From UHGV virus genome UHGV-0073881: 64,000 nt of DNA. The stretch is one strand, 5' to 3'. Origin of the DNA: a virus. The notes beneath the pieces are model-generated. The model searched no databases and was not told the origin of the DNA. It was given only the letters and a program-made list of their open reading frames with translations. This document shows, one piece after another, positions 17,357-64,000 of the stretch. The position numbers and the translations under genes are program-made. Every line of letters starts with the position of its first letter. The stretch's first letter is position 1.

Positions 17357-17358
17357 AT

Positions 17359-18894: not shown

Positions 18895-18901
18895 AATTAA
18901 T

Positions 18902-18977: not shown

Positions 18978-18983
18978 AACATT

Positions 18984-19059
18984 GGGGATGTAGTTTACAT
19001 GGTTAAAACATAAGTTTTGCAAACTTAAGTACAGGGTTCAATTCCATGCTTCTCCACCA
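18984..19059 (+). tRNA. tRNA-Ala (anticodon TGC)
   Basis: acceptor GGGGATG/CTTCTCC with G3:U70 identity pair, anticodon stem TAAGT/ACTTA loop TTTGCAA, T-loop TTCAATT, CCA encoded. Confidence 0.75.
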
Positions 19060-19065
19060 ATTAGT

Positions 19066-19140
19066 GCATCCATAGTTTAAACGGGAAAATTACAGTCTTC
19101 CAAACTGAGGTTGAGGGTTCGATTCCCTCTGGATGCTCCA
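19066..19140 (+). tRNA. tRNA-Gly (anticodon TCC)
   Basis: acceptor GCATCCA/TGGATGC, T-arm GAGGG-TTCGATT-CCCTC, anticodon loop CTTCCAA, CCA encoded. Confidence 0.75.
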
Positions 19141-19146
19141 ATTCAT

Positions 19147-19222
19147 GCTCCTATCGTATAACTGGCTATTACGGTTGTCTTGTAAGCAACTTATCAGGGT
19201 TCGAATCCTTGTGGGAGCACCA
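19147..19222 (+). tRNA. tRNA-Thr (anticodon TGT)
   Basis: acceptor GCTCCTA/TGGGAGC, D-stem CGTA/TACG, anticodon stem GTTGT/GCAAC loop CTTGTAA, T-arm CAGGG-TTCGAAT-CCTTG, CCA encoded. Confidence 0.7.
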
Positions 19223-19316
19223 ATTTGAGGTCAAGTGAAAGACCGCTTGAGTCAACTGAAGACCGTAACAAATTCCACGGAGTTGAGTTAGCGGCACAAC
19301 TTCAGACCTCTTTAAA

Positions 19317-19391
19317 GCTCGCTTAGTTTATATGGTAAAGCCCCATCCTTACAAGTTGGTGAAGAAGGTTCAAGTCCTTCAGCGAGTACCA
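19317..19391 (+). tRNA. tRNA-Val (anticodon TAC)
   Basis: acceptor GCTCGCT/AGCGAGT, T-arm GAAGG-TTCAAGT-CCTTC, anticodon loop CTTACAA, CCA encoded. Confidence 0.7.
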
Positions 19392-19392
19392 A

Positions 19393-19470
19393 GTTCCAGT
19401 ATCCCAATTGGCAGAGGATGCAAGCTCAAACCTTGTATTAGTGACGGTTCGAATCCGTCTTGGAACACCA
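19393..19470 (+). tRNA. tRNA with anticodon CAA (Leu-type anticodon, class I length)
   Basis: acceptor GTTCCAG/TTGGAAC, D-stem ATCC/GGAT with loop CAATTGGCAGA, anticodon stem GCAAG/CTTGT loop CTCAAAC, T-arm GACGG-TTCGAAT-CCGTC, CCA encoded. Confidence 0.65.
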
Positions 19471-19487
19471 AATTTTAGGAGATTCCT

Positions 19488-19700
19488 ATGAAGCCTTATG
19501 GTAGACACGGTAAAGTTGAAATTGCAAGTTGTGGTTGCTGTGCTTCTCACGATGGTGAAGAAGATTACTACAAGTGGCGTACAGACCATCGTAGACGCTT
19601 TCTCAGAAGAGATAAGAAGAAAGCTAGACAGGAATCTCGAAAAGATATTGCAGAATTAGTTCAAATGGATAGAGCAGCAACCTACGAAGTTGTTAGTTAG
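19488..19700 (+). CDS. hypothetical small basic protein (70 aa); 3-prime end overlaps tRNA-Arg
   Basis: ORF track; RBS AGGAG 7 nt before ATG; last 50 nt overlap the tRNA at 19650. Confidence 0.35.
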   Translation: MKPYGRHGKVEIASCGCCASHDGEEDYYKWRTDHRRRFLRRDKKKARQESRKDIAELVQMDRAATYEVVS

Positions 19701-19723
19701 GGGTTCGAATCCCTTATTCTGCA
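19650..19723 (+). tRNA. tRNA-Arg (anticodon ACG)
   Basis: acceptor GCAGAAT/ATTCTGC, D-stem GTTC/GAGC, anticodon stem GCAAC/GTTGT loop CTACGAA, T-arm AGGGG-TTCGAAT-CCCTT; CCA not encoded. Confidence 0.75.
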
Positions 19724-19744
19724 CAAATTTTAGAAGGTAATTAT

Positions 19745-19972
19745 ATGCGTAAACTCATTATTGAAAGGCATAAAGATGCTGACAAGATTGAAACAACACA
19801 AGTTGGGGACACTGACTTCATTCTTGTAGGTTGGAAATGTGACCCAATAGCAGCTATGAAGGTTGTTCATGGTTTTGCAGGAATTGAATTTAATCAAATC
19901 ATATTTGAAACGCTATTACCAGAAAATCAGGATACGTGTAATAACGCATATATCCTGACAAGAGTTCGTTAG
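19745..19972 (+). CDS. hypothetical protein (75 aa) between tRNA genes
   Basis: ORF track; ATG start; stop abuts tRNA-Gln. Confidence 0.4.
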   Translation: MRKLIIERHKDADKIETTQVGDTDFILVGWKCDPIAAMKVVHGFAGIEFNQIIFETLLPENQDTCNNAYILTRVR

Positions 19973-20046
19973 GGGATTAGTTTACAAGGTTAAAACCTCG
20001 GTCTTTGAAATCGAAGAAGTTGGTTCAATTCCAACATCCCCCGCCA
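19971..20046 (+). tRNA. tRNA-Gln (anticodon TTG)
   Basis: acceptor AGGGGAT/ATCCCCC (1:72 mismatch), anticodon stem TCGGT/ATCGA loop CTTTGAA, T-arm GTTGG-TTCAATT-CCAAC, CCA encoded. Confidence 0.7.
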
Positions 20047-20048
20047 AT

Positions 20049-20127
20049 GCTCCATTACTCCAATTGGCAGAGAGGCCAGACTTAAAATCTGTGTTATGTA
20101 TCGGTTCGAATCCGATATGGAGTACCA
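20049..20127 (+). tRNA. tRNA with anticodon TAA (Leu-type anticodon, class I length)
   Basis: acceptor GCTCCAT/ATGGAGT, D-arm CCAATTGGCAGAG, anticodon loop CTTAAAA, T-arm ATCGG-TTCGAAT-CCGAT, CCA encoded. Confidence 0.65.
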
Positions 20128-20133
20128 AATATT

Positions 20134-20209
20134 AGCAGTGTAGCATAACTGGCAATGCTCCAGCCTCTGAAGCTGAAAGATTAAGGTTCAAATCCTTACA
20201 CTGCTGCCA
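20134..20209 (+). tRNA. tRNA with anticodon CTG (Gln)
   Basis: acceptor AGCAGTG/CACTGCT, D-stem GCAT/ATGC, anticodon loop CTCTGAA, T-arm TTAAG-GTTCAAAT-CCTTA, CCA encoded. Confidence 0.65.
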
Positions 20210-20240
20210 CTTCTAAGGGTTCTTACGAGAGTCCTTAAAT

Positions 20241-20317
20241 GTGGCCTTATCATAAATGGATAATGACCCATGCTGTGAACATGGTCTATACGGGTTCGAT
20301 TCCCGTAGGTCACCCCA
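20241..20317 (+). tRNA. tRNA-His (anticodon GTG)
   Basis: acceptor GTGGCCT/AGGTCAC with C73, D-stem TCAT/ATGA, anticodon stem CCATG/CATGG loop CTGTGAA, T-arm ACGGG-TTCGATT-CCCGT, CCA encoded. Confidence 0.75.
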
Positions 20318-20324
20318 ATTTTAA

Positions 20325-20401
20325 TAGCTCAATTAGCTTATATGGTTAAAGCGCGTGTCTGAAAAACATGAGAACAGGGTTCAAATCCCGATGGGCTACC
20401 A
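20325..20401 (+). tRNA. tRNA-Phe (anticodon GAA), irregular acceptor/D junction
   Basis: anticodon stem CGTGT/ACATG loop CTGAAAA, D-stem GCTT/AAGC, acceptor TAGCTCA/TGGGCTA, T-loop TTCAAAT, CCA at 20399-20401. Confidence 0.6.
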
Positions 20402-20417
20402 ACTTTATAGGTGCATA

Positions 20418-21152
20418 ATGAAAGAGATGACAGGACAAGGTAAAGAGATTTTCAATCTCCTTAAATCCGGTAACGGGTTCTCTAACCCTCTTATTACTGG
20501 TGCAGCAGTTCTTGGTGGTACAGTTGCTGCTTCTCAGTCATTAATCACTTCAATTAGTTCTGTATCAGACCCAGCTACCCAGCAAATCCTTATTGCTGCT
20601 GGCTTGACAACTGCCTTACTAAGCAGCTTTACAACAAGCCTTGGTAGCACCACTTCAACGACAACTACTTTAACTGACTATGGACAGAAGTCTGTAGATG
20701 AGTTTTCACAGCGTATGCAGGTAGCCAAAGGATACTCTAATGTTATGGGAGCAGCGGGTGAACAAGTTGGATGTACACCGTTTAGTGGAATCATGGGAGT
20801 TGCTACTGAATACGGTAACAAGGCTATGGATTTGATTAACACCTCCATAGATGCCGTAAACAGCGTTCTAAGCGACTTACAGGATGCAATTGATAAAGGA
20901 CTAGCAACCATCTCTGACCTCGCTACACAAGCTGTTACAGCGATTAATGAAGGTATGGCAAAGATTACTGCCTACGCTAATGAAGTGGCTCAGATGATTG
21001 CAGACGAAGCAGCAATGATTGCAGAGTATCTAAAAACCAATATTAATGGTTTCCTTGCAAATGTTTTACCAGATTGGTTTAACGATGATTGTAAGACGGG
21101 TGTAATTGATACAATTGCAACTCCAGAGATGAAAGAAGCTCTAAACAAATAA
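20418..21152 (+). CDS. hypothetical Ala/Ser/Thr-rich protein embedded in tRNA operon (about 244 aa)
   Basis: ORF track 20355-21152; start moved to first ATG after tRNA-Phe (MKEMTGQ) with AGGTG RBS. Confidence 0.6.
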   Translation: MKEMTGQGKEIFNLLKSGNGFSNPLITGAAVLGGTVAASQSLITSISSVSDPATQQILIAAGLTTALLSSFTTSLGSTTSTTTTLTDYGQKSVDEFSQRMQVAKGYSNVMGAAGEQVGCTPFSGIMGVATEYGNKAMDLINTSIDAVNSVLSDLQDAIDKGLATISDLATQAVTAINEGMAKITAYANEVAQMIADEAAMIAEYLKTNINGFLANVLPDWFNDDCKTGVIDTIATPEMKEALNK

Positions 21153-21155
21153 TTT

Positions 21156-21248
21156 GGAAGATTAACCCTAAAAGGTAAGGGAGCAGTTTGCTAAACTGCC
21201 AGTAGCTGAGAAATTGGTGTACCAGTTCAAGTCTGGTATCTTCCTCCA
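21156..21248 (+). tRNA. tRNA-Ser (anticodon GCT), class II
   Basis: 93 nt; acceptor GGAAGAT/ATCTTCC, D-stem CCC/GGG, anticodon stem GCAGT/ACTGC loop TTGCTAA, long variable arm, T-arm ACCAG-TTCAAGT-CTGGT, CCA encoded. Confidence 0.75.
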
Positions 21249-21254
21249 AATTTT

Positions 21255-21330
21255 GCATTGGTGTCAGAAATGGATATGTACCTGTCTGCAAAACAGGTTT
21301 ATGAGGGTTCGAGTCCCTTCCAATGCTCCA
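21255..21330 (+). tRNA. tRNA-Cys (anticodon GCA)
   Basis: acceptor GCATTGG/CCAATGC, anticodon stem CCTGT/ACAGG loop CTGCAAA, T-arm GAGGG-TTCGAGT-CCCTT, CCA encoded. Confidence 0.8.
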
Positions 21331-51125: not shown

Positions 51126-52229
51126 TTATTCATAGTCTCGAATAACTAACCCAACAGGGAACTGTAAAGACCCCTTGCGAGTCATCTTCTGGAACTGAAC
51201 CGTTAAAGGTTTCCCGATAAACTCTTCAGGGTGTTCAGCAAGATACTGTTTCTTCTCATGGGTAGTTTTCCATGAAACATCTACAAAGACATTTGGAAGT
51301 GTCTCTACAACAAACTTACCATGACCCCGCTTATCGGTCTTCACACCAGTAATTTTAAACTCCTCTGTGTGCATCTTCTTATGTTTAATCAGGAAGTATG
51401 AACGGTGACCACACTCATAGAAGGACTCTGGAGAGATTGAGCGGTACATTGCACCTTCAAACTTAGCTTCAACCCACTTATCATGAGCTTCATCAAACTC
51501 TTCCCAAGAATTTACACGACGAGATTTAACAGGGACAACTCTACAGCCATCTCTAAAGTCATTCAATGGTGAAGTCTCAATAATACTTCTACGCTCAGGC
51601 CATGTCTTAGTGCTGTCACAGATATCATACCAGTAAAACTTGAGTAAATGTCGGTCAGGATTGTCTTCATTTTTAATCATGGAGACAATATCTTCTAAGT
51701 CCAACCCATGAGCATAGATTTCACCATCAAATTCATCAACGTCTTTATGGAGCCTCAACATTGCCATAATGTCAGGTATTAGCTCAGTAGGAATTTTATA
51801 AATAGTGTTCTCACGAGAATATGCTGTAAATACACTGCCAATACTTAAGTGTCTTGAAATCCTACAACGTACACCATCCAGTTTTGGTTGAGCATCAGCA
51901 GGAAATTTCAGATACTTTGCATGACTAACCTTTGCAGCATCATGAGCAAGCTGTACACCTACCTTCTCAGTATTCTGTGCAGACTCTTTTGTGTAAGCGT
52001 AACCTTTACGGTCTACTTGTTTCTTGTACTTAGCAGAAACTTCAAAGAGAGCTTGCTGTTCAGCATTACGCTCATTCTTTTTACCGATGTTCTTAGGCTC
52101 TGCTGTGTACTCTTCAAACATCATCTTGCCATTTTCTTTACCGTAGGTTGTAACCACCTTATCACCTACAGCAACACACGACCAAACGTTAAAAGAGCCA
52201 TCTTTATTTTGTTTGTACAGAATTGTCAT
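51126..52229 (-). CDS. ATP-dependent DNA ligase (putative)
   Basis: nucleotidyltransferase motif I KLDGVR (QPKLDGVRCRI); 367 aa, similar in size to T7-type ligases. Confidence 0.7.
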   Translation of the reverse strand: MTILYKQNKDGSFNVWSCVAVGDKVVTTYGKENGKMMFEEYTAEPKNIGKKNERNAEQQALFEVSAKYKKQVDRKGYAYTKESAQNTEKVGVQLAHDAAKVSHAKYLKFPADAQPKLDGVRCRISRHLSIGSVFTAYSRENTIYKIPTELIPDIMAMLRLHKDVDEFDGEIYAHGLDLEDIVSMIKNEDNPDRHLLKFYWYDICDSTKTWPERRSIIETSPLNDFRDGCRVVPVKSRRVNSWEEFDEAHDKWVEAKFEGAMYRSISPESFYECGHRSYFLIKHKKMHTEEFKITGVKTDKRGHGKFVVETLPNVFVDVSWKTTHEKKQYLAEHPEEFIGKPLTVQFQKMTRKGSLQFPVGLVIRDYE

Positions 52230-52483
52230 TTTCTCTTACCACCAATCTCTACGTCGATAACTTGAGTGTCTCCACAAACATCAAACTTGTGAATGACATT
52301 TTCTACAGTGTAAGTCCAACCATCAATCCTTACCCACTCACCTTCTCGTGGTACGATAGGGTTACGTTGGGCAACTGTAGTAGTTGAGTGTATAACGTCA
52401 TATAGGTGAATAAAGTTTACCAGTACTTGCATCTTAATATCCTTCGTCAATAACGGTGATGTGTTGAGTGCTTGACTTACCAT
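52226..52483 (-). CDS. hypothetical protein (85 aa)
   Basis: ORF track. Confidence 0.45.
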   Translation of the reverse strand: MVSQALNTSPLLTKDIKMQVLVNFIHLYDVIHSTTTVAQRNPIVPREGEWVRIDGWTYTVENVIHKFDVCGDTQVIDVEIGGKRK

Positions 52484-52679
52484 ACCTGTAAGAAGTTGTT
52501 GTCTGTGAATTTGGGCAACGGACTACTATTAAGTCATATTTAAATGTTGACCAATTAAGTTTGTATATTGAACAATCTCTCATCTCTGGAGGTAACTCAT
52601 AGCTACTGTCTTGTTTGTCATAACTTGGGTTACAGCCAGTTAGAAAAAGCACTCCAAGTGCAATGATTGTTTTCCACAT
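52434..52679 (-). CDS. putative lipoprotein (81 aa)
   Basis: N-terminus MWKTIIALGVLFLTGCNP with lipobox LTGC. Confidence 0.5.
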   Translation of the reverse strand: MWKTIIALGVLFLTGCNPSYDKQDSSYELPPEMRDCSIYKLNWSTFKYDLIVVRCPNSQTTTSYRYGKSSTQHITVIDEGY

Positions 52680-52900
52680 AGTTGATTTCCTTTTTCACAG
52701 TTTTCTTCGTAACCTTCTTGGACGGTCTTGTAAAGTTCCTTGAAAGTTTCTTCTTTCACTGGCTCTACAGACTTTGTTTTACACAAGTCCAAGTACCATT
52801 GATAGTCTAACCCACGACACCATGCTTCAGACACAAAAGAAATCTGAGGGTTTATGTTTCGGATTATTGCTAAACCAGCTTCTTCTTTACTGCTCATCAA
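52640..52900 (-). CDS. hypothetical protein (86 aa)
   Basis: ORF track; overlaps lipoprotein ORF start region. Confidence 0.4.
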   Translation of the reverse strand: MMSSKEEAGLAIIRNINPQISFVSEAWCRGLDYQWYLDLCKTKSVEPVKEETFKELYKTVQEGYEENCEKGNQLCGKQSLHLECFF

Positions 52901-53026
52901 ACTTAACCTCTCTAAAAGTTCTTAAGTAATATAGTTTGTAGTAAACTATTTCGCAACTACGAACGTTTGTTTTCAAAAGGTTCCAATCAAAACCTTCACC
53001 CATACTTCCCCAGATGCTGTAGAGCT

Positions 53027-53230
53027 TCACTGTAAAATGCTCCATCCAGTTTTCTGCCAATCACACCCACGATACCATGTAGCCATTGGGTAACCCATTT
53101 CACAGACAATCTTCCCATCTTTCATTTCGAAGAACTCATCAGATGTGAAATTTTCATTACGTACTTTGTGACCACTCTTCATGGCTTCAATAGCTTCTTC
53201 ATAAGTCATTTTGATTTCTCCAATACTCAA
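53027..53230 (-). CDS. hypothetical protein (67 aa)
   Basis: ORF track. Confidence 0.45.
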   Translation of the reverse strand: MSIGEIKMTYEEAIEAMKSGHKVRNENFTSDEFFEMKDGKIVCEMGYPMATWYRGCDWQKTGWSILQ

Positions 53231-53439
53231 AAGTTAATGTCAATGCGTTCACCCTTAAGGACTCCAGTGTGGTCTTTTGCAATCTTACCATCAACAATAA
53301 GGATATGTGCAAACCTTAAAGAGTCACGATTAAAACCTTTTACGAACTTACTAGGCATCACTACAATAAGCATCTCCTGAATCAACTCTGGAGTATAGCA
53401 ATTGTCGTGAAGTTGTTGGATAACGTCTGAAAGTGTCAT
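53227..53439 (-). CDS. hypothetical protein (70 aa)
   Basis: ORF track. Confidence 0.45.
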   Translation of the reverse strand: MTLSDVIQQLHDNCYTPELIQEMLIVVMPSKFVKGFNRDSLRFAHILIVDGKIAKDHTGVLKGERIDINF

Positions 53440-53490
53440 AAATCCTCCTATACAAGATATAGTATAAGGTACTCTTCCATGAGCACCTTG

Positions 53491-54003
53491 TCAACTTAGT
53501 TTTGCAAACTCTCCGTGGAGTTTCATAGCAGCTTCACAGTAAGCTTCATGGGCTTCTTCAGGGGTGTCATACATCCCAAGATGATAATTCTTACCTTGTA
53601 AACGAATCATTGCCCTAAACCTTTTCCCTATCTTCTGTACACCTTTTGGTAAACCTGATATGGACTTTCTAGACCGATTGCAAGAGTTTTGTGAAGCCGT
53701 ACAAACCCTCAAATTCAAATACCTATTATCCCAACCATCACAATTCTTGTGGTCAACCTGTAAGGTTTTATCAGGTAGGTATCCATCCATATACAAGATA
53801 ACTAAACGATTTGCTTGGTAACTCCTTCCATCAATCAGCAATTGGACAGACTTGTGACCATCAGTGTTTGTTCTGTAGTTTCCAGCCCTCTTACCTCCAA
53901 ATCTAGAGTTAAAGTTTGCATTACCTTCTCTAAATTTCCAAGTAAAGACCCCTGTATCGGGGTCGTACTCTAAAAGCTCCTTTAAACGAATTTCTGTAAT
54001 CAT
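53491..54003 (-). CDS. HNH homing endonuclease (NUMOD4-like N-terminus, HNH, AP2-like C-terminus)
   Basis: LKELLEYDPDTGVFTW, VDHKNCDGWDNRYLNLRVCTASQN, GVQKIGKRFRAMIRLQGKNYHLGMYDTPEEAHEAY; start moved from TTG 54042 to ATG 54003. Confidence 0.85.
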   Translation of the reverse strand: MITEIRLKELLEYDPDTGVFTWKFREGNANFNSRFGGKRAGNYRTNTDGHKSVQLLIDGRSYQANRLVILYMDGYLPDKTLQVDHKNCDGWDNRYLNLRVCTASQNSCNRSRKSISGLPKGVQKIGKRFRAMIRLQGKNYHLGMYDTPEEAHEAYCEAAMKLHGEFAKLS

Positions 54004-54013
54004 TTCAACACCA

Positions 54014-56713
54014 TCAATGTACTTCCAACCAGCTCTTACCAACCTTACCAGTACCTGTAACCATAGTTTCTTTTCTTAGACCAAGGTTTTTAGAAGCCTG
54101 CCCGTACATCCAGTCAGTGATAGCTTTAACCTCTTGAGTCATACTTTCTGGACATTCCCAACTATTTTCATCGTGATATGCCAGAAGAAGTCTAGCTCCA
54201 ATAGCTGGCTTACGTCCATTCAGCTTCATCAACCCTTCATCATAGGCTCTACGACATGCAAGGTTAATTGCTTCATTCTGTACTTGACTTTCTGAACCCA
54301 TCAAAAGGTAATTTAACAGCTTGTGTGGAGACTTACACCATAACCAAGCTCCAGCAACCTTTACAAAACCCCCTTTAGAGATTGCAGCAGTCTTACCAAA
54401 GACCTCTTCAAGAGCCTTCTTAGTCGCTTTAAAGTCAGCTTCTAAGTTATCAATCAGTTTCTTAATCTTCGGCAAACGAACGAAGTAAGTCTGTTTAGTC
54501 AATGCACCCTCCTGAGTAGTTGCTGCTTTAATGGTCTTAGCAAACTTCTCATCCCCTGCACCAAACAGCAGTGCATAGATGCCATTCTTAGCTTTCTTAC
54601 GACCTTTACTGATTTCGTGAAGAAGATTTTCATCCTGAGTCATACGACAAGTCAAGATATCCTGCTCATCATTCAAGCTGAAGTAGATACTGTTCAGTGT
54701 GTGAGCATCAGTGCCTGAGTAAACTACGTACAAGTCGTTTTCAGAGTCATAACGCAGATACTTGTCAACCTCTGGATTCAGGTATTCGTCAAAGTGTTTG
54801 CAGTAGTAGCGACCATCTTCTTGACGAACAAATTCAATCTCTTCTTTACCTTCGGTTACCGCTTTGGTGAACTCTTTATCACCCATAAAGTTACACAGTA
54901 AAACAAGCTGTGCAGAGTTCATATCCACAGAGACTACGTTGGTTCCCTTCTCACAAATCCAAACTGCCCTCATTGGTTCACCATAAACAGCAGCACCGGA
55001 AGGTACGTTTACAATACCATACTGTGTCATACGTCCAGTGGATGTACCAAACACCATTGCACCAGCACTTAAACGACCATCTGGACGAATCTGATTCAAC
55101 CAACCTTTCTCATCATCCTTTGAGTTCTCAATAGTTCTGCGTCGGTGCATCAAAGTATAGTACTTCGCAATCTTCTGCCCAAGTTCACCTTCGATAGTGT
55201 CATAAGAAGATTCAGTCAGTTTTGGTGAAGTACGAATCAAGCAAGGTTCAAGAACATCTGTGTATTTCTTCACAGACCAATTATGCTCGATGTACTGTAC
55301 CCCTTCATGCTCAACGTAGTTTAAACCACAACGTTCAACCATTTCATCCCACTTAGGATGTTTACGAATCATCTTCTTATTATCTTTGAAGCGACAAACC
55401 TTAACAGGACGACCATCTGAGTCTTTCTTGTAGTTCCAATCATCAGGAATCCAACCAACAGATTTCAGATACTCTTTAACTACTGCAACCTGAGTCATGC
55501 GTGAAACTTCAAACTCAATCGGTGTATATGGTGCATCAATCAAACCCGTGTAACGACTTGACTCAAGTTCAAAGTGATTAACAACATGATTGTTGTAGTA
55601 CTTGACAATCTTAACAGTTTTAACTGGCTTCCAATCTTTGCACTTCTTGTCAACCTTCGCATTTAGCTCATTACATACTGCACGAGCATCTTTCATTGCC
55701 ACGAAACCTTCTTTGTACTCTTCTCCGGTTACCGTGTTAGTTGGTGTGTAGCAGTTACGTTTCTCTACGCTGAAAATCTTGGTAGTTGGTTTACCAAATG
55801 GCTTAATAGGATAACTTTGCATTTCCCCATTACGAACCTGCTGACGATACTTTGTCTTAGGATACTTGGTAATACGTTTCAAACCATCTGCTTCACCAAA
55901 AGTTTCAACATACTCATTCCAAGCTTTTGCAAATTCTTCACCAGTAACTTTCCCTTTTGTCTTGATAGTTGGTGGTAAGAATGGCTCAACCTCTGAAGCA
56001 AGGTCAGCAGTCATCTTATCAAGTTCTTTAACACAACTCTTCATCATGTTAATGTCAGCTTTCCAACCATTGATAGCTTGCTGGCTCATCCAGAAAGATG
56101 TTTCTTTAGCTCGCATGTAGGTTTCGTAGGTATCCACACCACACTTCTTCAGCTTCACATACTCATTATCAAGAGCACGTTTAGTTTTGGCGTTGATTCG
56201 AATATCTTCAACAACACGAGTTAAGATTTCAGCGTTCCAAACTCCCCACTCTTCAATCTCAGGCTTACGGACACCAACACGAGCACCCCATGCAGCCAAA
56301 CCATGAGAACCCTTGTAACCTTTCGGTGTAGGTCTATCCATCCACTGAACACGAGATTGGATAAGTGAATCTTGGAAGAAATTACTCCAAGGCTTACATT
56401 TAGGGTTATCAAAGTTCCACAGGTCAGGTGCAATGTGGTTGAACACCCACCAGTCATAACCAAGACCGTTGTGAATGCAAAGACGTTTCGCCTTTAAAGC
56501 AAACTCAACACCCTCTCTTAAGCCACCCTTGATATACTTGGTGTACTTGTGACCAAGAATAGGCTCATCAGTGAATACCCACACAGGTGGTTCATCACTG
56601 TCATCTTTGTAATCTGCAAAAGCCATTACGTGAGCTTTAGTGAACTCAAGCAGCAATCCGTCAGTTTCTGTATCGCCTACCAGATGCAAATTTTTAAAGT
56701 CTACGTTTTCCAT
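54014..56713 (-). CDS. DNA polymerase, family A with 3-5 exonuclease domain
   Basis: exo motif HLVGDTETDGL, polymerase motif B-like KNGIYALLFGAGDEKF and motif C YHDE; start at ATG 56713 (MENVDF) with GAGGGAG RBS. Confidence 0.9.
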   Translation of the reverse strand: MENVDFKNLHLVGDTETDGLLLEFTKAHVMAFADYKDDSDEPPVWVFTDEPILGHKYTKYIKGGLREGVEFALKAKRLCIHNGLGYDWWVFNHIAPDLWNFDNPKCKPWSNFFQDSLIQSRVQWMDRPTPKGYKGSHGLAAWGARVGVRKPEIEEWGVWNAEILTRVVEDIRINAKTKRALDNEYVKLKKCGVDTYETYMRAKETSFWMSQQAINGWKADINMMKSCVKELDKMTADLASEVEPFLPPTIKTKGKVTGEEFAKAWNEYVETFGEADGLKRITKYPKTKYRQQVRNGEMQSYPIKPFGKPTTKIFSVEKRNCYTPTNTVTGEEYKEGFVAMKDARAVCNELNAKVDKKCKDWKPVKTVKIVKYYNNHVVNHFELESSRYTGLIDAPYTPIEFEVSRMTQVAVVKEYLKSVGWIPDDWNYKKDSDGRPVKVCRFKDNKKMIRKHPKWDEMVERCGLNYVEHEGVQYIEHNWSVKKYTDVLEPCLIRTSPKLTESSYDTIEGELGQKIAKYYTLMHRRRTIENSKDDEKGWLNQIRPDGRLSAGAMVFGTSTGRMTQYGIVNVPSGAAVYGEPMRAVWICEKGTNVVSVDMNSAQLVLLCNFMGDKEFTKAVTEGKEEIEFVRQEDGRYYCKHFDEYLNPEVDKYLRYDSENDLYVVYSGTDAHTLNSIYFSLNDEQDILTCRMTQDENLLHEISKGRKKAKNGIYALLFGAGDEKFAKTIKAATTQEGALTKQTYFVRLPKIKKLIDNLEADFKATKKALEEVFGKTAAISKGGFVKVAGAWLWCKSPHKLLNYLLMGSESQVQNEAINLACRRAYDEGLMKLNGRKPAIGARLLLAYHDENSWECPESMTQEVKAITDWMYGQASKNLGLRKETMVTGTGKVGKSWLEVH

Positions 56714-56969
56714 TTTCACTCCCTCTCAAACATATGACTCCATACCTTACTGCAAAACGACACAAAAAGCAAGTTGACAAATAACTTGACAGGGTGTTAG
56801 TCTTGTATGCAGTGGGTTTTAACTTAAAAGACTCCCTTTACAGATTAACTATACAGATTCTTTAAAACCCTTAAAAGATTTTAATAGCTTTTAAAAAGCT
56901 TTAAAGTATTACGTATAGAATACGTAAAGAAAGAGATTAAGACTTAATAGAAACTATAAAGAGGCTGCC

Positions 56970-57392
56970 ATGCAGAGAATGTTTGTTCACCCTGACGTAG
57001 CAAATTTCCTAAAAGCTTTGGAGAAGTTAGAAGAACTTGACATAGCTGCTCAGAAGGAATATGCTTACCATCATCGTCGAATGGTTGATGTTCAACACGA
57101 AATAGAACTTTCAGAAGGTTACGACGAAGATTTGAAATGCTCTGTTTTCGAGCATATGAAAGAGATTGCTTCTGATAGGCGTAAAGCAAAAGATACATGT
57201 TTTTTGATAGATGCCTTAAAAAAGAAGTTGCAAAGTGGAACAGACTTGTGTAGTCTAGCAACACTTCTTCAGGATGTTGAGAGTTCTTGGGACAGACATT
57301 ACTTCCCAAGGTCTGAAAAGACACTTGACTTCTCTTCACCGGAAGGATTAAAATTATCACGACTTACATTAAACAAAATGAGAGAGAAATAA
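56970..57392 (+). CDS. hypothetical protein (140 aa)
   Basis: ORF track; RBS AAGAGG. Confidence 0.55.
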   Translation: MQRMFVHPDVANFLKALEKLEELDIAAQKEYAYHHRRMVDVQHEIELSEGYDEDLKCSVFEHMKEIASDRRKAKDTCFLIDALKKKLQSGTDLCSLATLLQDVESSWDRHYFPRSEKTLDFSSPEGLKLSRLTLNKMREK

Positions 57393-57393
57393 T

Positions 57394-58194
57394 ATGAAAA
57401 CTGTAAATGAAATGCTGGCAGAAAAGAACATCAACGAACAATTCCTGTTAACTACTGTGGAAAGCCTTGCTGTAATTTTCCGTAGCAATACGTTCACTCG
57501 TGGCTTTATGCCAGAATCACTTCAAGTTACAGATATTGACAGTGACGAATCTTTCCGCTCAACTGTAGAGTTACTTACCAGCAATCGTAAAATTGCTCTG
57601 ACCTCTATCGTTGTTGGTGTTGACTCTCTGGCTAAATTCCTGTTTGAGAACATGCAGAGTGGTGATTACTCTAGCATGGATGAGCAAAGCATTAATATGC
57701 TGCTTAATGAGATGACTGAACAGCAAATGGTCATGGGTATTGTTGGTGGAGTATCAAGTGTCATGGCTATGCTGGAAAAGCGTATGGAAGATAAATCTTC
57801 ACGCTATGACAAACTTGATTGGGGTTTCAATGTAATCTCTGAACGTGCTAAAGCGCTGGCTATTGAAACTTACCAGAAACTGGAAGACTTGACTAAACAG
57901 GACGCAGATATTAAGCTTGACGACATTCAGGTTATGGTTACTGCTCTGACACCTGCAATCATGACTATCATGAATATTCACGCAATTCTTGAAGTTGCAG
58001 ATTTGCTGAAGTCTCCACCTTCTTTCATTGAAGAAATCAGTGGTGGTGCAAGTGCATCTGCTTTGCAAGATGTTCTTATGCAGACCAACGTAGCAATTGT
58101 ACGTGAGAAGATTGCCATTAACTTTGGCGATGAATTTTTGCAGCAGATTGAAGCAATGGCTGAAAAGAACGGTGAAGATATTACAATTCACTAA
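57394..58194 (+). CDS. hypothetical protein (266 aa)
   Basis: ORF track; coupled to upstream ORF. Confidence 0.6.
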   Translation: MKTVNEMLAEKNINEQFLLTTVESLAVIFRSNTFTRGFMPESLQVTDIDSDESFRSTVELLTSNRKIALTSIVVGVDSLAKFLFENMQSGDYSSMDEQSINMLLNEMTEQQMVMGIVGGVSSVMAMLEKRMEDKSSRYDKLDWGFNVISERAKALAIETYQKLEDLTKQDADIKLDDIQVMVTALTPAIMTIMNIHAILEVADLLKSPPSFIEEISGGASASALQDVLMQTNVAIVREKIAINFGDEFLQQIEAMAEKNGEDITIH

Positions 58195-58209
58195 TTGTTA
58201 ATACCCAAA

Positions 58210-58238
58210 TAGCCTCCTTAATTGGGGGCTTTTTATTA
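58210..58238 (+). terminator. rho-independent terminator-like hairpin
   Basis: stem AGCCTCC/GGGGGCT, loop TTAATT, then TTTTATT. Confidence 0.5.
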
Positions 58239-58252
58239 TGGAGAGGTTGAGT

Positions 58253-58993
58253 ATGAAAAGTATTATTGCATTCACTGGTAAGGCTCGTTCTGGAAAAGAC
58301 ACTTCCTGTACTCTGGTAAGAAATGCCTTGACTGAGAAAGGTTACAAAGTTAAAGTTTTTGCGTTTGCAGATAACCTTAAAAACACTGCTGGAGATATCT
58401 TCAACCTGACTTGGGAAGATTTGTATGGAGACACAAAAGAAACTCCACAGGTCTTCACACTGACTCATTCAGCATTATCTTCACAGGTTATTTGGGCTTT
58501 TTACAGACACATGCAAGATAAGGATATCCACAAGGATTTAAAGCTGTGTGGTGAATTAACCGACAAACTAATCAAAGAATTGAAAAAGGTTGGTAAACCG
58601 ACATTACTCACCAGACTCGGCTTGCGTAATGAATATAAAATCTCTTCACGTCAAATCCAACAAGTTTGGGGAAGTGAAGTTGTCCGTAAAATCTTGGGTG
58701 AAAGGTTCTGGATTATTGACTTAGCAGAACGCATGGAGAAGTTCTTTGGTGAATGCCATACAGAAGACCATGAAGGTATTGCACTAATCTGTGATTTAAG
58801 ATTTGACATTGAGGCTGAGTTTCTTCAAAGTTATGACAGTAAAATCATTGAGGTGAAGAGGGACAATACTACACAAGTTGCTTCACATCATTCTGAGAAA
58901 GGTATTTCAACCTTGTTTGAGCGTGACATTATTCAAAACAATGGCACAATGGATGAGCTTGAAAGTAAACTAAAAGCTATCATTGGAATTTAA
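58253..58993 (+). CDS. deoxynucleoside monophosphate kinase (T4 gp1-like, putative)
   Basis: P-loop FTGKARSGKDT resembles the T4 dNMP kinase N-terminus; start taken at ATG 58253. Confidence 0.65.
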   Translation: MKSIIAFTGKARSGKDTSCTLVRNALTEKGYKVKVFAFADNLKNTAGDIFNLTWEDLYGDTKETPQVFTLTHSALSSQVIWAFYRHMQDKDIHKDLKLCGELTDKLIKELKKVGKPTLLTRLGLRNEYKISSRQIQQVWGSEVVRKILGERFWIIDLAERMEKFFGECHTEDHEGIALICDLRFDIEAEFLQSYDSKIIEVKRDNTTQVASHHSEKGISTLFERDIIQNNGTMDELESKLKAIIGI

Positions 58994-59201
58994 AAAGAGA
59001 GATATTAAGATGAGAGTAGATAATTTAAAAGTAATTGACCACCGTTCTGTAGAACTCTCATCTCTTTCTAAGGAAGTAATGATGGAGCGACTTGAAAGGG
59101 TCACTTCACGAAGGAAAGAGATTGCTGAAGAAATTCATGAACTAGACAAGATTGAAAATGGTTTAAAAGCTGAACTGCAACGTAGAGGTGCTAATGTCTA
59201 A
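58983..59201 (+). CDS. hypothetical protein (72 aa)
   Basis: ORF track. Confidence 0.45.
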   Translation: MEFKKRDIKMRVDNLKVIDHRSVELSSLSKEVMMERLERVTSRRKEIAEEIHELDKIENGLKAELQRRGANV

Positions 59202-61179
59202 AGGTCGTAAATTGAAAGAGGCTGGTCAGTTTGTTGGTCACTGTGCATGTCCTAAGTGTGGTTCATCAGATGCAGGGTCTATCTATCATCATGACGATGA
59301 TTCTTATTCGATGACTTGCTTTAGCTGTAACAAAGGGTTTCCAGAGTGGGATTTTGATAAGGGTCAGATTGTGAGCACATATTCTACAGGTTCTGATAAT
59401 AATAGCCGTACTTTCCGTGGTATGGATTTAGATGAAGTAAAAGAGAACCTTGAAGCAATGGATTTAAAAGACAGGAAGATTCCTGCAAAGGTTCTTGAAC
59501 GTCTTGGTATTAAGGTTGACATTGATGAAAACGGTGATATTGACGCTCACTTTTACCCAACTTATAAGAAAGATGAAAATGGGAAGCTGAAGCATGTTGG
59601 TTATCGTGTTCGCCACAAATACCCTGAAGACCATCCTAAAGAGCATCTTCGTGGCAAGTTAAAAGACTTCTCAGGTGGTGTAGGAGATATTAAAGGTGAA
59701 CTGGCTATGTTCGGTTCATGGATTGCTCCAGAAGGTGGTAACCGTCTTTTCATTTGGGAAGGAGAGATGGAATGTGCTACAGCAATCTATATGACTTCTT
59801 TGGCAATCAAAGATAAGTCACGTAGAAAGAATTACTGTCACGTTTCTGTACCATCTGGTGCAAACATTAAGTCTATCAAAGAAAACTATCAGTACATTAC
59901 ATCGTTTGATGAGATTTACCTGTGCTTTGATAATGACGAAGCTGGAGCCAAAGTAACTAAAGAAGCTGCTGGTATTCTGCCTATTGAGAAGGTTCGTTTA
60001 TTCCAGTACCCAGAAGGTGTTAAAGACCTTAGCGAGTGGTGGACTAAATTCTTCAAAGACAAAGATACAGTCCTTGAAGGGTTTAAGCAGAGAATTTACA
60101 ATGCACCTCGTTACTGCCCTGCTGGTATCAAGAACTTCGCAGATGGTTTTGAGGCTATGAAGAATCGTGGTCAGATTCCACTGATTCCCTTCCCAGATTC
60201 CTTCGGAGACCTTAACAGGTTGACTTATGGAGGTTATGGCTTAGGGGAAATTACAACTCTGGCTGCACCATCTTCAGTTGGTAAATCTGCATACACTCGT
60301 GAAATGATTTACACAGCTTGGAAAGAAACTGACTACAATATCGGTGTAATTCCTGTGGAAGACACCTATGAAGAGTTAATGGAAATGCTCTGTGCAATTC
60401 ACCTGAGTAAGCAGATTTCAGAAATTAATTATGATGAACGGGATTGGGATGAAATCAAAGTTGCACATGCTGAGTTGTCTGCTGGTCGTCGTATCCATAT
60501 CGTTGACCACCAAGGGGCAATTGACCAAGACAACCTTCTAGAGTTTGTTGACTATCTGGTTAACAGTCTAGGTTGCAAGATTATTATTCTTGACCCTATT
60601 ACGTTGGCACTGTCACGTTCTGATACAGATGAAGAAGAAGTTCTGTCTGAGTTACTTCGTCGTTGTAAGCGTTATCAATACGCTCAAGTAAACGTCTGTC
60701 ACGTTCGTAAGAGTGCAGGTGGTCAGAAAGCTAACTCTGAAGGTGGAGATATCTCTGAAGAGGATATCAAGGGTTCTGGTGCATACTTCCAGATTTCTAT
60801 GAACAACATTCTGTTAATGCGTAACAAGGTTGACCCAGACCCTGTTAAGAAAAACTTGACTAAAATCAAGTTAACAAAATGTCGTCGTCATGGTAAGTCA
60901 ACTGGTATTGCTGGTCACACTTGGTATAACCCAGATACAGGTCGTCTTATCAAGGCTGCTGGTAGTGGTGTTGATATTGACGGTGCAGCAGAGAATATCC
61001 GTCAGCAATTTGGTATCGGTGAACCGGAAGACCACTATGATGATTCTATGCCACACTATGAAGATGGAGACTTTGACAAAGATACTGGTGAAATCTACAC
61101 TGAAGAACAACGTCAAAGTTCTACCATTCCACCTGTGATTAATGAGGATGATGATGACTGCCCGTTTGAAACTGAATGA
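59194..61179 (+). CDS. primase-helicase (zinc-finger primase fused to DnaB-like helicase, T7 gp4-type)
   Basis: N-terminal CACPKCGSS...CFSCNKGF zinc ribbon; Walker A LAAPSSVGKSAYT; 663 aa; start ATG 59194 with AGAGGTG RBS. Confidence 0.85.
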   Translation: MSKGRKLKEAGQFVGHCACPKCGSSDAGSIYHHDDDSYSMTCFSCNKGFPEWDFDKGQIVSTYSTGSDNNSRTFRGMDLDEVKENLEAMDLKDRKIPAKVLERLGIKVDIDENGDIDAHFYPTYKKDENGKLKHVGYRVRHKYPEDHPKEHLRGKLKDFSGGVGDIKGELAMFGSWIAPEGGNRLFIWEGEMECATAIYMTSLAIKDKSRRKNYCHVSVPSGANIKSIKENYQYITSFDEIYLCFDNDEAGAKVTKEAAGILPIEKVRLFQYPEGVKDLSEWWTKFFKDKDTVLEGFKQRIYNAPRYCPAGIKNFADGFEAMKNRGQIPLIPFPDSFGDLNRLTYGGYGLGEITTLAAPSSVGKSAYTREMIYTAWKETDYNIGVIPVEDTYEELMEMLCAIHLSKQISEINYDERDWDEIKVAHAELSAGRRIHIVDHQGAIDQDNLLEFVDYLVNSLGCKIIILDPITLALSRSDTDEEEVLSELLRRCKRYQYAQVNVCHVRKSAGGQKANSEGGDISEEDIKGSGAYFQISMNNILLMRNKVDPDPVKKNLTKIKLTKCRRHGKSTGIAGHTWYNPDTGRLIKAAGSGVDIDGAAENIRQQFGIGEPEDHYDDSMPHYEDGDFDKDTGEIYTEEQRQSSTIPPVINEDDDDCPFETE

Positions 61180-61432
61180 GTGTTATCTGAAGGAGGGTTT
61201 CACGCCCTTCTATTCAGAAGAGACTACTAAAAAATTCGCAAAAGAGTGCTTGACTAAGATTGAACAGTTCGCTAAAGTACTCATCAACAAGGGGCACGAT
61301 GTTACTTTTGAACATGAAAGCCGTAAAGATAAAGACTTGTTTGCACTGTCAATTGACAAAGCTGATACAATTTATCTTTTCACCTTGACTTTAAAAACAT
61401 TTGAATATGAAATATATCGGAGCACAAAATGA
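61142..61432 (+). CDS. hypothetical protein (96 aa)
   Basis: ORF track; overlaps primase-helicase 3-prime end. Confidence 0.4.
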   Translation: MRMMMTARLKLNECYLKEGFTPFYSEETTKKFAKECLTKIEQFAKVLINKGHDVTFEHESRKDKDLFALSIDKADTIYLFTLTLKTFEYEIYRSTK

Positions 61433-61653
61433 AACACTCTAAAGCATTTGAAGCAGTATTTGGCGATTCCATGAAAGCAACTGCTGGTAAGTCTGCTGCA
61501 CATTATGAAGCGAAGCGTGTACGTACTGGCAAGACTGCTCGCAAAGCTGCTAAGAAAGCTGCTTAAAAAGATTTGACAAAGGAGTATGAAGTCTGTAACA
61601 TTGTACTCCTTCGAGTTTGAGTTAAAAGTTTAATTGAGTAAAGAGGTATTAAA

Positions 61654-62496
61654 ATGTCTAAAGTTGTTAAAATGAAATCTCCGGTAGAAAAGTACAACGG
61701 TCAAGAGCGCGAGACAATGCGTTATCTGCTGAAAGATGTTTGGTTCTACTACCTGAACACTATTCCACGCCCGGGAAAAGGTAAGTCAGTAGATAAGAAA
61801 TTCCCAGGCAAAGATTGCAACTACAGCGTTTCAATTCTTGCAAAGGATGGTAACAAGCTGTTTAAAGAGTTTACCAAGACCAAGAAGAGTCCTGAAGGTT
61901 GGGATAAGGTCACCACTGAAGTTGTTGATGCAGATGACTTTGAAGAAAAATTTGGTTGTGAGCCTCCATTTGAAGCTGACACCTATCACATCTTGAAAGT
62001 TAGTCGTGCTGCTGCTTACAAAGATGGTGCTGTGTGGACAGCTAAACAGTCTTTCCCTGTAAGTCTGATTGAAGAAATTAACGGGAAGCGTGTTGCAGTT
62101 AAGCAGCCTATGAAGAAAATCAAAGCGCTTAAATCTGATAAGCACGAAGATGATAAGAACTATGACGTAGTTCACCCAGACATTGCAGTTGGTAACGGTT
62201 CTTTTGGTAGTGTTATCTTGGCAACTCACTTCTACACATTTGAAGGTGCTGTGTTGACGAAACCAATTCAAGAGCAGTTTATCATTGATACTCTGGTTCC
62301 GTACACTGGTGGTACAGGTAGCAACTCTGATACTGAACTGGATGAAGACGAACTGGCAATGCTTGGTCTGGATGGTGTTGAAGATAATGGTACTATCACT
62401 GAAGAAGAACCTACAGAAAATGATGGTGACGACGACGATGATGACCTTCCAACTCCAGACGACGATGACGACGATGACTTTGATACTGAAGAATAA
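61654..62496 (+). CDS. single-stranded DNA-binding protein-like with acidic C-terminal tail
   Basis: C-terminus DGDDDDDDLPTPDDDDDDDFDTEE resembles acidic tails of phage SSBs; sits between helicase and FEN genes. Confidence 0.55.
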   Translation: MSKVVKMKSPVEKYNGQERETMRYLLKDVWFYYLNTIPRPGKGKSVDKKFPGKDCNYSVSILAKDGNKLFKEFTKTKKSPEGWDKVTTEVVDADDFEEKFGCEPPFEADTYHILKVSRAAAYKDGAVWTAKQSFPVSLIEEINGKRVAVKQPMKKIKALKSDKHEDDKNYDVVHPDIAVGNGSFGSVILATHFYTFEGAVLTKPIQEQFIIDTLVPYTGGTGSNSDTELDEDELAMLGLDGVEDNGTITEEEPTENDGDDDDDDLPTPDDDDDDDFDTEE

Positions 62497-62511
62497 TCGT
62501 TAAAACTAATA

Positions 62512-62542
62512 CTAAGCCCTGTACTATGTATGGGGCTTTTTC
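62512..62542 (+). terminator. terminator-like hairpin
   Basis: stem AGCCC/GGGCT with 15-nt loop (CTGTACTATGTATGG), then TTTTT. Confidence 0.45.
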
Positions 62543-62556
62543 GTATGGAGATTAAA

Positions 62557-63603
62557 ATGGAAAAGTATACACTTACAAAACTCCCAGATACTGTGACACA
62601 CGTCTTTATTGACTCTGATAGCATTGCCTATAAAGGTGCTTGTGTAGTTGAGAAAGCAAAGTACAAGTATGTGAACAAAATCACTGCTGAAGAGTCTGAA
62701 GGGTTTGACAGTGCAAAGCTTGCTAATCAATGGTTGTCAGACCAGAGAACTTTGACAGAAGAACTTGGCCTCAGCTTTGATGAAGATGAATGGGAAAGAC
62801 AAACTTGGAAAGAAGCTAAGAGTGAAAAAGAAGCTATTATGGCAACTCAACAAGTTCTTCAAGAATGGTTGAAGGTTGTCGGAAAAGAAAGACATTGGGA
62901 AGGTTACCTCACAGAGAAAGGTGTTCACAAACACAAAGACATTAAAGGTCTTGAACATCAATACCAAGGTAACAGGAAAGATGCTGTAACACCAACGCAC
63001 CTAGTTGCTTGTCGTGAGTATCTTCTGTCACGACCAGAGTTTAAGCTTTTAAAGGGAGGCTTTGAAGCTGACTCTATTGTAATTGCCAAAGCTGAGAAGA
63101 TGGGTAAAAAAGCTGCATTGATGAGTATTGATAAAGACCTTCGTCAAGCTGAAGGCACATACTGCATCGATATGACTTATGAGAAAGCCCCATTAATCTT
63201 TATCGCTGATGGTAATGTGGGAGAGATTTGGGATTGTCCTATCAAATCTAAACCAAAAGCTAAGAAGACGGTTGGAGTAGGCTTCAAATTCCTCTGCTAT
63301 CAAGCTGTAGCAGGTGATAATGCCGATAACTACTTTGGCCTTAAGGGTGCTGGTAAAGTTGCTGTAATGAACGCTCTGGAAGGTAAAACAACCTATAAAG
63401 AGTGTCTTGATGCAATCTATGAACTGTATGCTAAGAAAGACTCTTACACATACGTATCGTGGGACGGTGAAACAATTACAAGAACACCTCTTGAGTTGAT
63501 GGAACAACATTTCTTCTTAGCATACCAAGAGCGAAACAAATCAGATGACTTCTCATTTGAAAAGTATGGTTGGACTCCAAATGTTGACTCAGCAGACACT
63601 TAA
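62557..63603 (+). CDS. 5-3 exonuclease / flap endonuclease (FEN family)
   Basis: VFIDSDSIAYKGA, MSIDKDLRQ and AGDNADNYFGLKGAGKVAV resemble FEN/Pol I 5-prime nuclease motifs; start taken at ATG 62557. Confidence 0.8.
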   Translation: MEKYTLTKLPDTVTHVFIDSDSIAYKGACVVEKAKYKYVNKITAEESEGFDSAKLANQWLSDQRTLTEELGLSFDEDEWERQTWKEAKSEKEAIMATQQVLQEWLKVVGKERHWEGYLTEKGVHKHKDIKGLEHQYQGNRKDAVTPTHLVACREYLLSRPEFKLLKGGFEADSIVIAKAEKMGKKAALMSIDKDLRQAEGTYCIDMTYEKAPLIFIADGNVGEIWDCPIKSKPKAKKTVGVGFKFLCYQAVAGDNADNYFGLKGAGKVAVMNALEGKTTYKECLDAIYELYAKKDSYTYVSWDGETITRTPLELMEQHFFLAYQERNKSDDFSFEKYGWTPNVDSADT

Positions 63604-64000
63604 AGAGTATCTTCATTATGACCCCGAAACAGGGGTCTTTACTTGGTTGAAGAAATCGGCTAATAGGACAGTCATTGGTTCAGTTGCTGGAACACCCCAT
63701 AAAAGGGGCTATATCAGGATTACCATAAAGAGAAAATCATACATGGCTCATGATTTAGCCATTCTTTACACAGAGGGATTCTTACCAGACCGTGTAGACC
63801 ATCGTAACGGAATTACTAATGACAACCGAAGAATGAACTTGAGAGTTTGCACTCAAGCTGAAAATTGTTGGAATAGAAAAATACACTCCAACAATACATC
63901 TGGCGTAAAAGGTGTATCATTCAACAAAGCTTCACAGAGGTGGAGAGCAAGGATTATGGTTCACGGTGTAACACATTTCCTTGGTCTGTTTGACAATGTT
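63581..64000 (+). CDS. HNH homing endonuclease (partial, runs off window end)
   Basis: frame 2 from ATG 63581: LHYDPETGVFTW, VDHRNGITNDNRRMNLRVCTQAEN, GVKGVSFNKASQRWRARIMVHGVTHFLGLF; paralog of 53491-54003. Confidence 0.75.
   Translation, partial: MLTQQTLKEYLHYDPETGVFTWLKKSANRTVIGSVAGTPHKRGYIRITIKRKSYMAHDLAILYTEGFLPDRVDHRNGITNDNRRMNLRVCTQAENCWNRKIHSNNTSGVKGVSFNKASQRWRARIMVHGVTHFLGLFDNV

Follow-up and report, generated by a model that had tools for sequence, protein, structure and literature searches.

What are three HNH endonuclease genes doing in the tRNA array and directly behind replication genes of the virus genome UHGV-0073881, and what did they bring with them? The 64,000-nucleotide stretch of this genome analysed here (hereafter the window) is that of a Felix O1-like myophage (Ounavirinae): positions 52000-64000 match 280 phage records by megablast, all of them Felix O1-like myophages of the Ounavirinae (Felixounavirus, Mooglevirus), the best match being Escherichia phage pEC-M719-6WT.1 with 92.4% identity over 84% of the query. 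The three genes, which a sequence-only reading of the window had placed at 17899-18246, at 53491-54003 and from 63581 onward, are present there as intact open reading frames (ORFs), the last one cut by the window end. HNH-1 (17899-18246, plus strand, 115 amino acids) lies within the tRNA array, HNH-2 (53491-54003, minus strand, 170 amino acids) follows the DNA polymerase gene and HNH-3 (63581-64000, plus strand, the first 140 of about 166 codons) follows an exonuclease gene. We consider it very probable that all three belong to the free-standing homing endonuclease genes and represent two HNH types, HNH_3 with a putative AP2 domain in two cases and a zinc-finger HNH in the third. Judged from alignments with relatives, the sequence flanking each gene goes with the nuclease gene in its ancestry and not with the backbone.

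HNH-2 and HNH-3 match the Pfam model HNH_3 at 43.4 and 32.3-32.8 bits, respectively, both above the curated cut-off of 24.8, and the family phrog_99, labelled HNH endonuclease, at 8.6e-60 and 1.5e-61. The catalytic DH...N...N motif is intact in both proteins (VDHKNCDGWDNRYLNL in HNH-2 and VDHRNGITNDNRRMNL in HNH-3) and aligns to that of I-HmuI, which is also the nearest solved HNH_3 domain to HNH-2, albeit by a weak match (PDB 1U3E; E 0.016). The C-terminal half of the assignment comes from AP2, matched by HNH-2 with E 5.5e-6 and 27 bits, and by the full-length Moogle copy of HNH-3 with E 0.0012, both under the 33.3-bit cut-off; the start of AP2 is present in the part of HNH-3 contained in the window, and the HNH-AP2 C-terminus matches plant AP2/ERF structures in a phmmer search (WRI1, E 0.0017). 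The two proteins had been described as NUMOD4/AP2-type paralogs in the sequence-only reading. That they are paralogs is borne out (41% identity, E 8e-31), while NUMOD4 has to be dropped, as it finds no match in either protein even at E<=10. As to gene limits, the HNH-2 protein begins MITEIRLKELL, and although a longer, TTG-started ORF extends to 54042, overlapping the polymerase gene, 53491-54003 is the better reading; HNH-3 runs without a stop across its 140 codons, and its full-length Moogle copy (98% identical) has 166 amino acids.

HNH-1 is of a different kind. It matches phrog_2255 (HNH endonuclease) at 3.8e-39, finds no Pfam match at 0.01 and is not matched by the HNH_3 model; its score against Pfam HNH (PF01844) is 15.4 bits (E 0.021), under the cut-off of 21.4. 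The protein carries a complete CxxC...HH...N...CxxCH motif and aligns weakly to the HNH domain of McrA (6GHC). Membership of the wider HNH fold is thus suggested by phrog_2255 and by this zinc-finger motif. All three genes have counterparts that were already annotated as HNH or HNH homing endonucleases in relatives, where the same genes occupy the same positions: identity is 96-99% between HNH-1 and Felix O1 ORF45-type genes (95.7% for Felix O1 ORF45 itself), 98.1% between HNH-2 and KPS64 gp36, and 98.2% between HNH-3 and the genes of Moogle (gp26), Mijalis and vB_SflM_004. Six HNH genes were reported in Felix O1 (Whichard et al. 2010, PMC3185647), and our literature search found no biochemical characterisation of these Ounavirinae HNH enzymes.

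The comparison with relatives lacking the insertions, which the sequence-only reading had proposed as a check, finds all three genes to be polymorphic for presence and absence among about 260-310 relatives. HNH-1 DNA is full length in 28 of about 307 records sharing the tRNA region, and the window's allele of HNH-2 in 28 of the 263 records sharing its flanks. HNH-3 is full length in 28 records, 6 of them at about 98% and 22 at about 78% identity, and its conserved 5' end, in some variant, is found in 125 of about 280 records. For the HNH-2 site we searched with the empty site of pEC-M719-6WT.1, took 60 records spread evenly down the ranking, and scored the site as occupied where the annotation said so or where its span exceeded that of the empty site by about 700-730 bp; about 29 of these relatives have some HNH gene there, 16 are uninterrupted and 15 have smaller, unrelated insertions. 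Repeatedly, several divergent HNH variants occupy the same sites. Far from being universal at identical positions, all three genes are missing from the closest relative, pEC-M719-6WT.1, and the combination of occupied sites is specific to the genome analysed here. Given that about half or more of the relatives do without each of them, none of the three genes is required.

The insertions themselves are precise. HNH-2 sits between the stop codon of the polymerase gene (54014-54016, minus strand) and an intergenic stretch (CAAGGTGCTCATGGAAGAGTACC...) that is kept in all compared genomes; its ATG, at 54003, lies 10 nt past the stop, in agreement with the description of the gene as directly downstream of the polymerase gene. 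Relative to pEC-M719-6WT.1 and Moogle the gene is a clean 513-bp indel running exactly from the ATG to the TGA of the ORF, with a 5-bp repeat (GTTGA) at both edges, and the empty junction between polymerase gene and downstream sequence in pEC-M719-6WT.1 reads ...TTGAA/CAAGGTGCTCATGG... (the slash marks the junction). HNH-1 lies between a tRNA-like element (17802-17887) and tRNA-Ser (18480). Relative to the empty site of wV8, which reads CCAATT/TAGTTAGCAGATT, the window has CCAATT/TTGGATGAAATC ATG...TAT/TAGTTAGCAGATT, that is, an insertion of 356 bp (17888-18243, plus strand) made up of 11 nt with a ribosome-binding site and the ORF, placed 4 nt past the CCA of the upstream tRNA-like gene; the TAG stop of HNH-1 comes from the flank, not from the insertion. 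HNH-3 starts within the final eight codons of the exonuclease gene and overlaps the end of that ORF (63603) by 23 nt, so that the overlap claimed for it in the sequence-only reading is confirmed.

The evidence that these genes did not arrive alone comes from the sequence beside them, and in this respect the proposal that they mark sites of recent gene conversion holds: donor-type tracts adjoin each gene in a backbone like that of pEC-M719-6WT.1. In a sliding identity profile, the window is 97-100% identical to this phage across 54400-60900, whereas 54000-54400 is only 75-90% identical to it and 95-100% identical to KPS64. A three-way alignment delimits a co-conversion tract of about 375 bp at the 3' end of the polymerase gene (54005-54380, minus strand), in which 63 of 71 informative sites are KPS64-like; from 54005 up to 54257 the count is 49 of 50, and in 54392-56719 it is only 24 of 297 (Fisher p 1e-41 for 63 of 71 versus 24 of 297). 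HNH-2 and the adjacent polymerase 3' end are 98-99% KPS64-like, in a backbone that is 86% KPS64-like and 97-100% like pEC-M719-6WT.1. On the other side of HNH-2, the sequence returns to the pEC-like type within the 50-bp conserved spacer. At HNH-3 the donor type is that of Moogle, with mismatches to this phage at 2 of 177 positions in 63427-63603 (plus strand) and 7 of 397 in the HNH-3 gene, compared with 40 of 327 just upstream; the gene and the 177 bp that end the exonuclease gene, a co-conversion tract of about 180 bp, are about 99% Moogle-like as against about 88% upstream. At HNH-1, the flanks 17550-17800 and 18250-18400 are 96-100% identical to pEC-M719-6WT.1, and 17800-18243, comprising the tRNA-like element and HNH-1, is absent from that phage and 96-100% identical to Felix O1 and D4. 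As 17481-17571 and about 18400-18450 are also of the Felix O1/D4 type, this tract may reach about 1 kb. Each of the three donor tracts has its start exactly at an HNH gene, is short and extends to one side only, and they are such footprints as would be expected of homing with co-conversion of flanking markers.

We also considered whether HNH-2 and HNH-3 bracket a jointly mobilised homing endonuclease gene (HEG) island. This was rejected, the tracts being short and from different donors; of the 9.6 kb between the two genes, only 54400-60900 is pEC-like, the sequence beyond being about 85% identical to all compared genomes. An HEG island in the sense of Barth et al. would span more than 10 kb of high identity between two homing genes and come from one donor, whereas the tracts described here are under 400 bp.

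The mechanism that we propose is that of intronless homing. Each HNH gene follows directly on a conserved gene (DNA polymerase, exonuclease, tRNA-like gene) and is oriented as that gene is. This shared orientation, and the finding that promoter-like sites around HNH-2 are in no excess over shuffled sequence, make it likely that each is co-transcribed with its upstream neighbour. Upon co-infection with a relative without the gene, the enzyme would nick or cut the empty allele, either at the insertion point or close to it, and recombinational repair from the HNH-bearing genome would copy in the gene together with a flanking stretch. Given that the HNH-2 insertion splits a conserved junction, the target of this enzyme plausibly spans the insertion point; that of HNH-3 is suggested to lie within the 3' end of the exonuclease gene because of the linked change found in that 3' end; and the HNH-1 target, like that of SegB, probably takes in tRNA-gene sequence, here the 3' end of the tRNA-like gene. 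The linked change in question is that the HNH-bearing exonuclease alleles of the window, Moogle and Mushroom share a distinct C-terminus, two residues longer than that of HNH-less alleles: the tails read ...GWTPNVDSADT in the window and Moogle and ...NVNSTNS in Mushroom, as against ...GWEPVMNED in pEC-M719-6WT.1 and ...NWEPVMNED in KPS64. We infer nuclease activity, target sites and enzyme-driven transfer for all three genes; that they may cleave homologous loci of co-infecting phages, as the sequence-only reading had it, is the standard assumption for such genes.

Each element of this scheme has precedents. The free-standing T4 genes MobE, SegF and SegG, located between conserved genes and inherited with co-converted flanking markers (PMC2790892; PMC2330249), resemble all three genes in arrangement; those cases were shown by experiment, whereas here the same outcome is read from sequence mosaicism only. 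Homing with co-conversion of flanking markers was demonstrated experimentally for T4 SegB, SegE, SegF and SegG (PMC2330249). AP2-HNH homing endonucleases have been described with Felix O1 among the examples (Magnani 2004, as cited in PMC5318435), and HNH-AP2 homing genes beside DNA polymerase genes, as well as homing genes at the boundaries of exchanged DNA, were reported by Barth et al. 2023 (PMC10448857). Members of this HNH-AP2 family (Magnani et al. 2004; the 'IPA-HNH' genes of ICP1) have an N-terminal HNH and a C-terminal AP2 domain, the latter being putative in HNH-2 and HNH-3; they are free-standing, as HNH-2 and HNH-3 are, and often located beside DNA polymerase genes; unlike the ICP1 genes, described as too divergent for Pfam HNH_3, HNH-2 and HNH-3 match this model above its cut-off. 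I-HmuI of SPO1, an HNH nicking endonuclease, is also associated with a polymerase gene, as HNH-2 is, but is intron-encoded and has other DNA-binding modules, whereas HNH-2 is free-standing, follows an uninterrupted polymerase gene and has a putative AP2 domain. For HNH-1, examples of nuclease genes within phage tRNA clusters come from T4 (SegB) and T5 (F-TflI, F-TflII as well as F-TflIV) (PMC2330249); these enzymes, of the GIY-YIG family in T4 and the HNH family in T5, are likewise encoded by free-standing genes among tRNA genes and absent from close relatives. The SegB target includes tRNA-gene sequence (a T-loop motif), and neighbouring tRNA genes are co-converted with it (PMC2330249), to which the bringing along of the upstream tRNA-like gene by HNH-1 is comparable. 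SegB is, however, of a different nuclease family, and with the HNH-1 segment an aberrant tRNA-like element took the place of a canonical tRNA-Arg(UCU).

Several points weigh against the homing interpretation. Cleavage, target sites and biased inheritance of these three enzymes rest on inference; HNH-1 scores under the Pfam HNH cut-off, and AP2 under its own in both paralogs; Mushroom has an HNH gene at the HNH-2 site but a pEC-like polymerase 3' end; and mosaic tracts could in principle result from ordinary homologous recombination, with the HNH genes as passengers. Carried to its end, the last point would have ordinary homologous recombination among co-infecting Ounavirinae make the tracts, the nucleases being inactive relics or uninvolved in their own spread. 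We regard this as improbable. The phage group is indeed mosaic also where no HNH gene lies, as illustrated by the drop in identity to pEC-M719-6WT.1 at about 60950-61000, but recombination indifferent to the nucleases leaves unexplained why every donor tract starts exactly at an HNH gene, stays short and extends to one side, and why the same sites have been refilled by divergent variants. The ORFs are, moreover, intact with their catalytic motifs kept, and synonymous codon differences outnumber non-synonymous ones by 29 to 18 in HNH-1 (window versus Sf16) and by 28 to 10 in HNH-2 (window versus Mushroom), a pattern of purifying selection, which together would argue against dead relics without proving activity. 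The Mushroom combination led us to reject the idea that HNH-2 is linked to a fixed, 'immune' allele of the polymerase 3' end: as this allele is not strictly tied to HNH presence, the HNH-2 tract records one transfer event. HNH-3 is unlike HNH-2 in this respect, the distinct exonuclease C-terminus being found in all three HNH-bearing alleles compared.

For HNH-1, a role in DNA repair or packaging as a junction resolvase like endonuclease VII, rather than in homing, was weighed as well, given that its orthologue is called 'putative endonuclease VII' in several GenBank records and that T4 endonuclease VII has the same zinc-bound class of HNH fold. This is barely credible: an essential resolvase would not be so sporadic as to occur in only 28 of about 307 related genomes, and the gene, inserted ORF-precisely 3' of a tRNA-like gene, by far exceeds its flanks in conservation (96-99%). 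Alternatively, the enzymes might mainly serve the phage, by cutting the replication genes or tRNA array of competitors (marker exclusion) or by amplifying nearby loci, as for SegB in the T4 group. Positions beside essential genes are in keeping with what phage homing genes were reported to show (PMC10448857); the T4 tRNA region is inherited preferentially through the action of SegB (PMC2330249), an enzyme that has also been linked to amplification of anti-defence tRNA loci (PMC13096335). Service to the phage nonetheless differs from homing only in the beneficiary, which sequence cannot separate, and as the main function of these enzymes we hold it to be highly improbable.

The phenomenon, the gene families and these exact genes have been described before, and in that sense the finding is an ordinary one. 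Its value is that of a clean worked example of homing-gene turnover, in which four or more HNH sites set apart two phages that are 97-100% identical over several kb, and each HNH gain dragged in 90-400 bp of adjoining essential-gene or tRNA sequence. This is useful for reading mosaicism, drawing species boundaries and engineering Felix O1-like therapeutic phages, and has little import beyond annotation.

The tRNA-like element that accompanies HNH-1 (17802-17887, plus strand) deserves separate description. It has a UCU anticodon, no D-arm, a G3:U70 pair, A73 and a 20-nt extra variable region; its Rfam tRNA score of 31.7 bits (cut-off 29) is the lowest in the tRNA array (16036-21330), and ARAGORN makes no call at this position. 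G3:U70 and A73 are alanine identity marks, and the 3' end of the element resembles that of the E. coli transfer-messenger RNA (tmRNA). The same slot holds a canonical tRNA-Arg(UCU) in pEC-M719-6WT.1, Henu11 and KPS64 and in Mooglevirus-type genomes, and dozens of Felixounavirus genomes have the element at 100% identity, whether or not they carry HNH-1. Its identity in dozens of genomes that are without HNH-1 led us to reject the element as a part of the HNH-1 cassette; going by this distribution, it is the Felixounavirus allele of the slot, carried into a Mooglevirus or pEC-like backbone by the conversion tract and replacing tRNA-Arg(UCU). Just past tRNA-Arg(UCU), KPS64 has an unannotated 118-nt tRNA-like sequence (its 2495-2612) with acceptor strands GGTCAAG...CTTGACT, the T-arm GTAGGTTCGACTCCTAC and a CCA end, which is absent from the window.

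Upstream of the element, a consensus-like promoter (TTGACA, 17 nt, TATAGT; 17449-17477, plus strand) precedes a conserved non-coding RNA, both lying within 17449-17800. The RNA contains a segment like the message part of a tmRNA, AAAUAAAU GCA AAC GAU AAU GUU UUU CUG GCA GUA GCU UAA UAG, whose tag frame encodes ANDNVFLAVA followed by two stops, and a hairpin 3' of the tag frame shows compensatory changes in KPS64 and Sf16. For a full tmRNA in the window there is no ARAGORN call, and Rfam tmRNA and permuted-tmRNA matches are far under cut-off; in Moogle, ARAGORN calls a permuted tmRNA bearing the ANDNVFLAVA tag, a call not made in the window. The genome announcements of Moogle (PMC4319497) and Mushroom (PMC4392139) both mention 'ssrA' in Felix O1-like phages, without analysis. 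Between promoter and tag, the window has a 90-bp segment, 17481-17571 (plus strand), in common with Felix O1 and D4; it is absent from pEC-M719-6WT.1, Henu11, KPS64, Sf16, wV8 and VpaE1_ev78.

A further feature is common to the two HNH-AP2 genes. About 40 nt into each ORF there is a GC-rich hairpin, GACCCCGAUACAGGGGUC in HNH-2 (53947-53964, minus strand) and GACCCCGAAACAGGGGUC in HNH-3 (63620-63637, plus strand), followed in both by UUUACUU. The 18-nt hairpin sequence, GACCCCGAnACAGGGGUC, is identical in both ORFs and in the Mushroom variant, though the proteins are only 41% identical; it occurs twice in the window, where no copy is expected by chance, and is made of codons that this phage seldom employs (CCC 2%, GGG 8%, GTC 8%). 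It may be an attenuator or other regulatory hairpin, a product of gene conversion between the paralogs, or a DNA site. A bolder proposal is that the gain of HNH-1 changed the translation toolkit of the phage, replacing tRNA-Arg(UCU) by a D-armless element that acts jointly with the upstream RNA as a split tmRNA-like system, and, separately, that the HNH-AP2 hairpin is an attenuator keeping the nuclease low. We hold this to be unlikely; a split tmRNA-like system, if real, would mean that homing genes move functional RNA modules from one phage genus to another.

Elsewhere in the tRNA array, 16120-16191 (plus strand; Rfam tRNA 53.7 bits), missed by ARAGORN, occupies the tRNA-Glu slot of relatives, and a sub-threshold Rfam tRNA-like element (26.9 bits) is found at 16861-16924 (plus strand) between tRNA-Asp and tRNA-Lys. 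A motif scan and tblastn with Felix ORF44, ORF47 and ORF48, the Moogle GIY-YIG and the Mushroom HNH proteins as queries found in the window no additional HNH or GIY-YIG gene from the families that this phage group is known to have, other nuclease families not having been searched exhaustively. In Felix O1 and wV8, HNH genes are inserted at two or more other sites of the array, each directly 3' of a tRNA gene, and between its tRNA-Gly and tRNA-Thr pEC-M719-6WT.1 has an HNH gene like Felix ORF47 (8834-9247 of that phage); the corresponding site of the window is empty, with a 6-nt spacer (19141-19146).

Of the genes neighbouring HNH-2 and HNH-3, the upstream one at 54014-56719 (minus strand) encodes a family A DNA polymerase, according to Pfam DNA_pol_A and the annotation of relatives, and is uninterrupted in the window. 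The gene 5' of HNH-3 (62530-63603, plus strand), labelled 'FEN' in the sequence-only reading, matches the exonuclease family phrog_107 at 1.3e-63, and its counterparts in relatives are labelled exodeoxyribonuclease or 5'-3' exonuclease; as its product has no Pfam or PDB sequence match, an exonuclease is what can be kept of that label, FEN as such being weakly supported. A primase/helicase gene is also among the replication genes of the region, and it is near its 3' end that identity to pEC-M719-6WT.1, 97-100% up to there, falls abruptly to about 85% (at about 60950-61000); this boundary has no nuclease gene. A 383-bp segment devoid of ORFs divides the DNA polymerase gene in two in Mushroom (5469-5853) and in several other relatives. 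The split in Mushroom was remarked on by the authors of its genome announcement (PMC4392139), and the segment could be a small intron or the remnant of an insertion.

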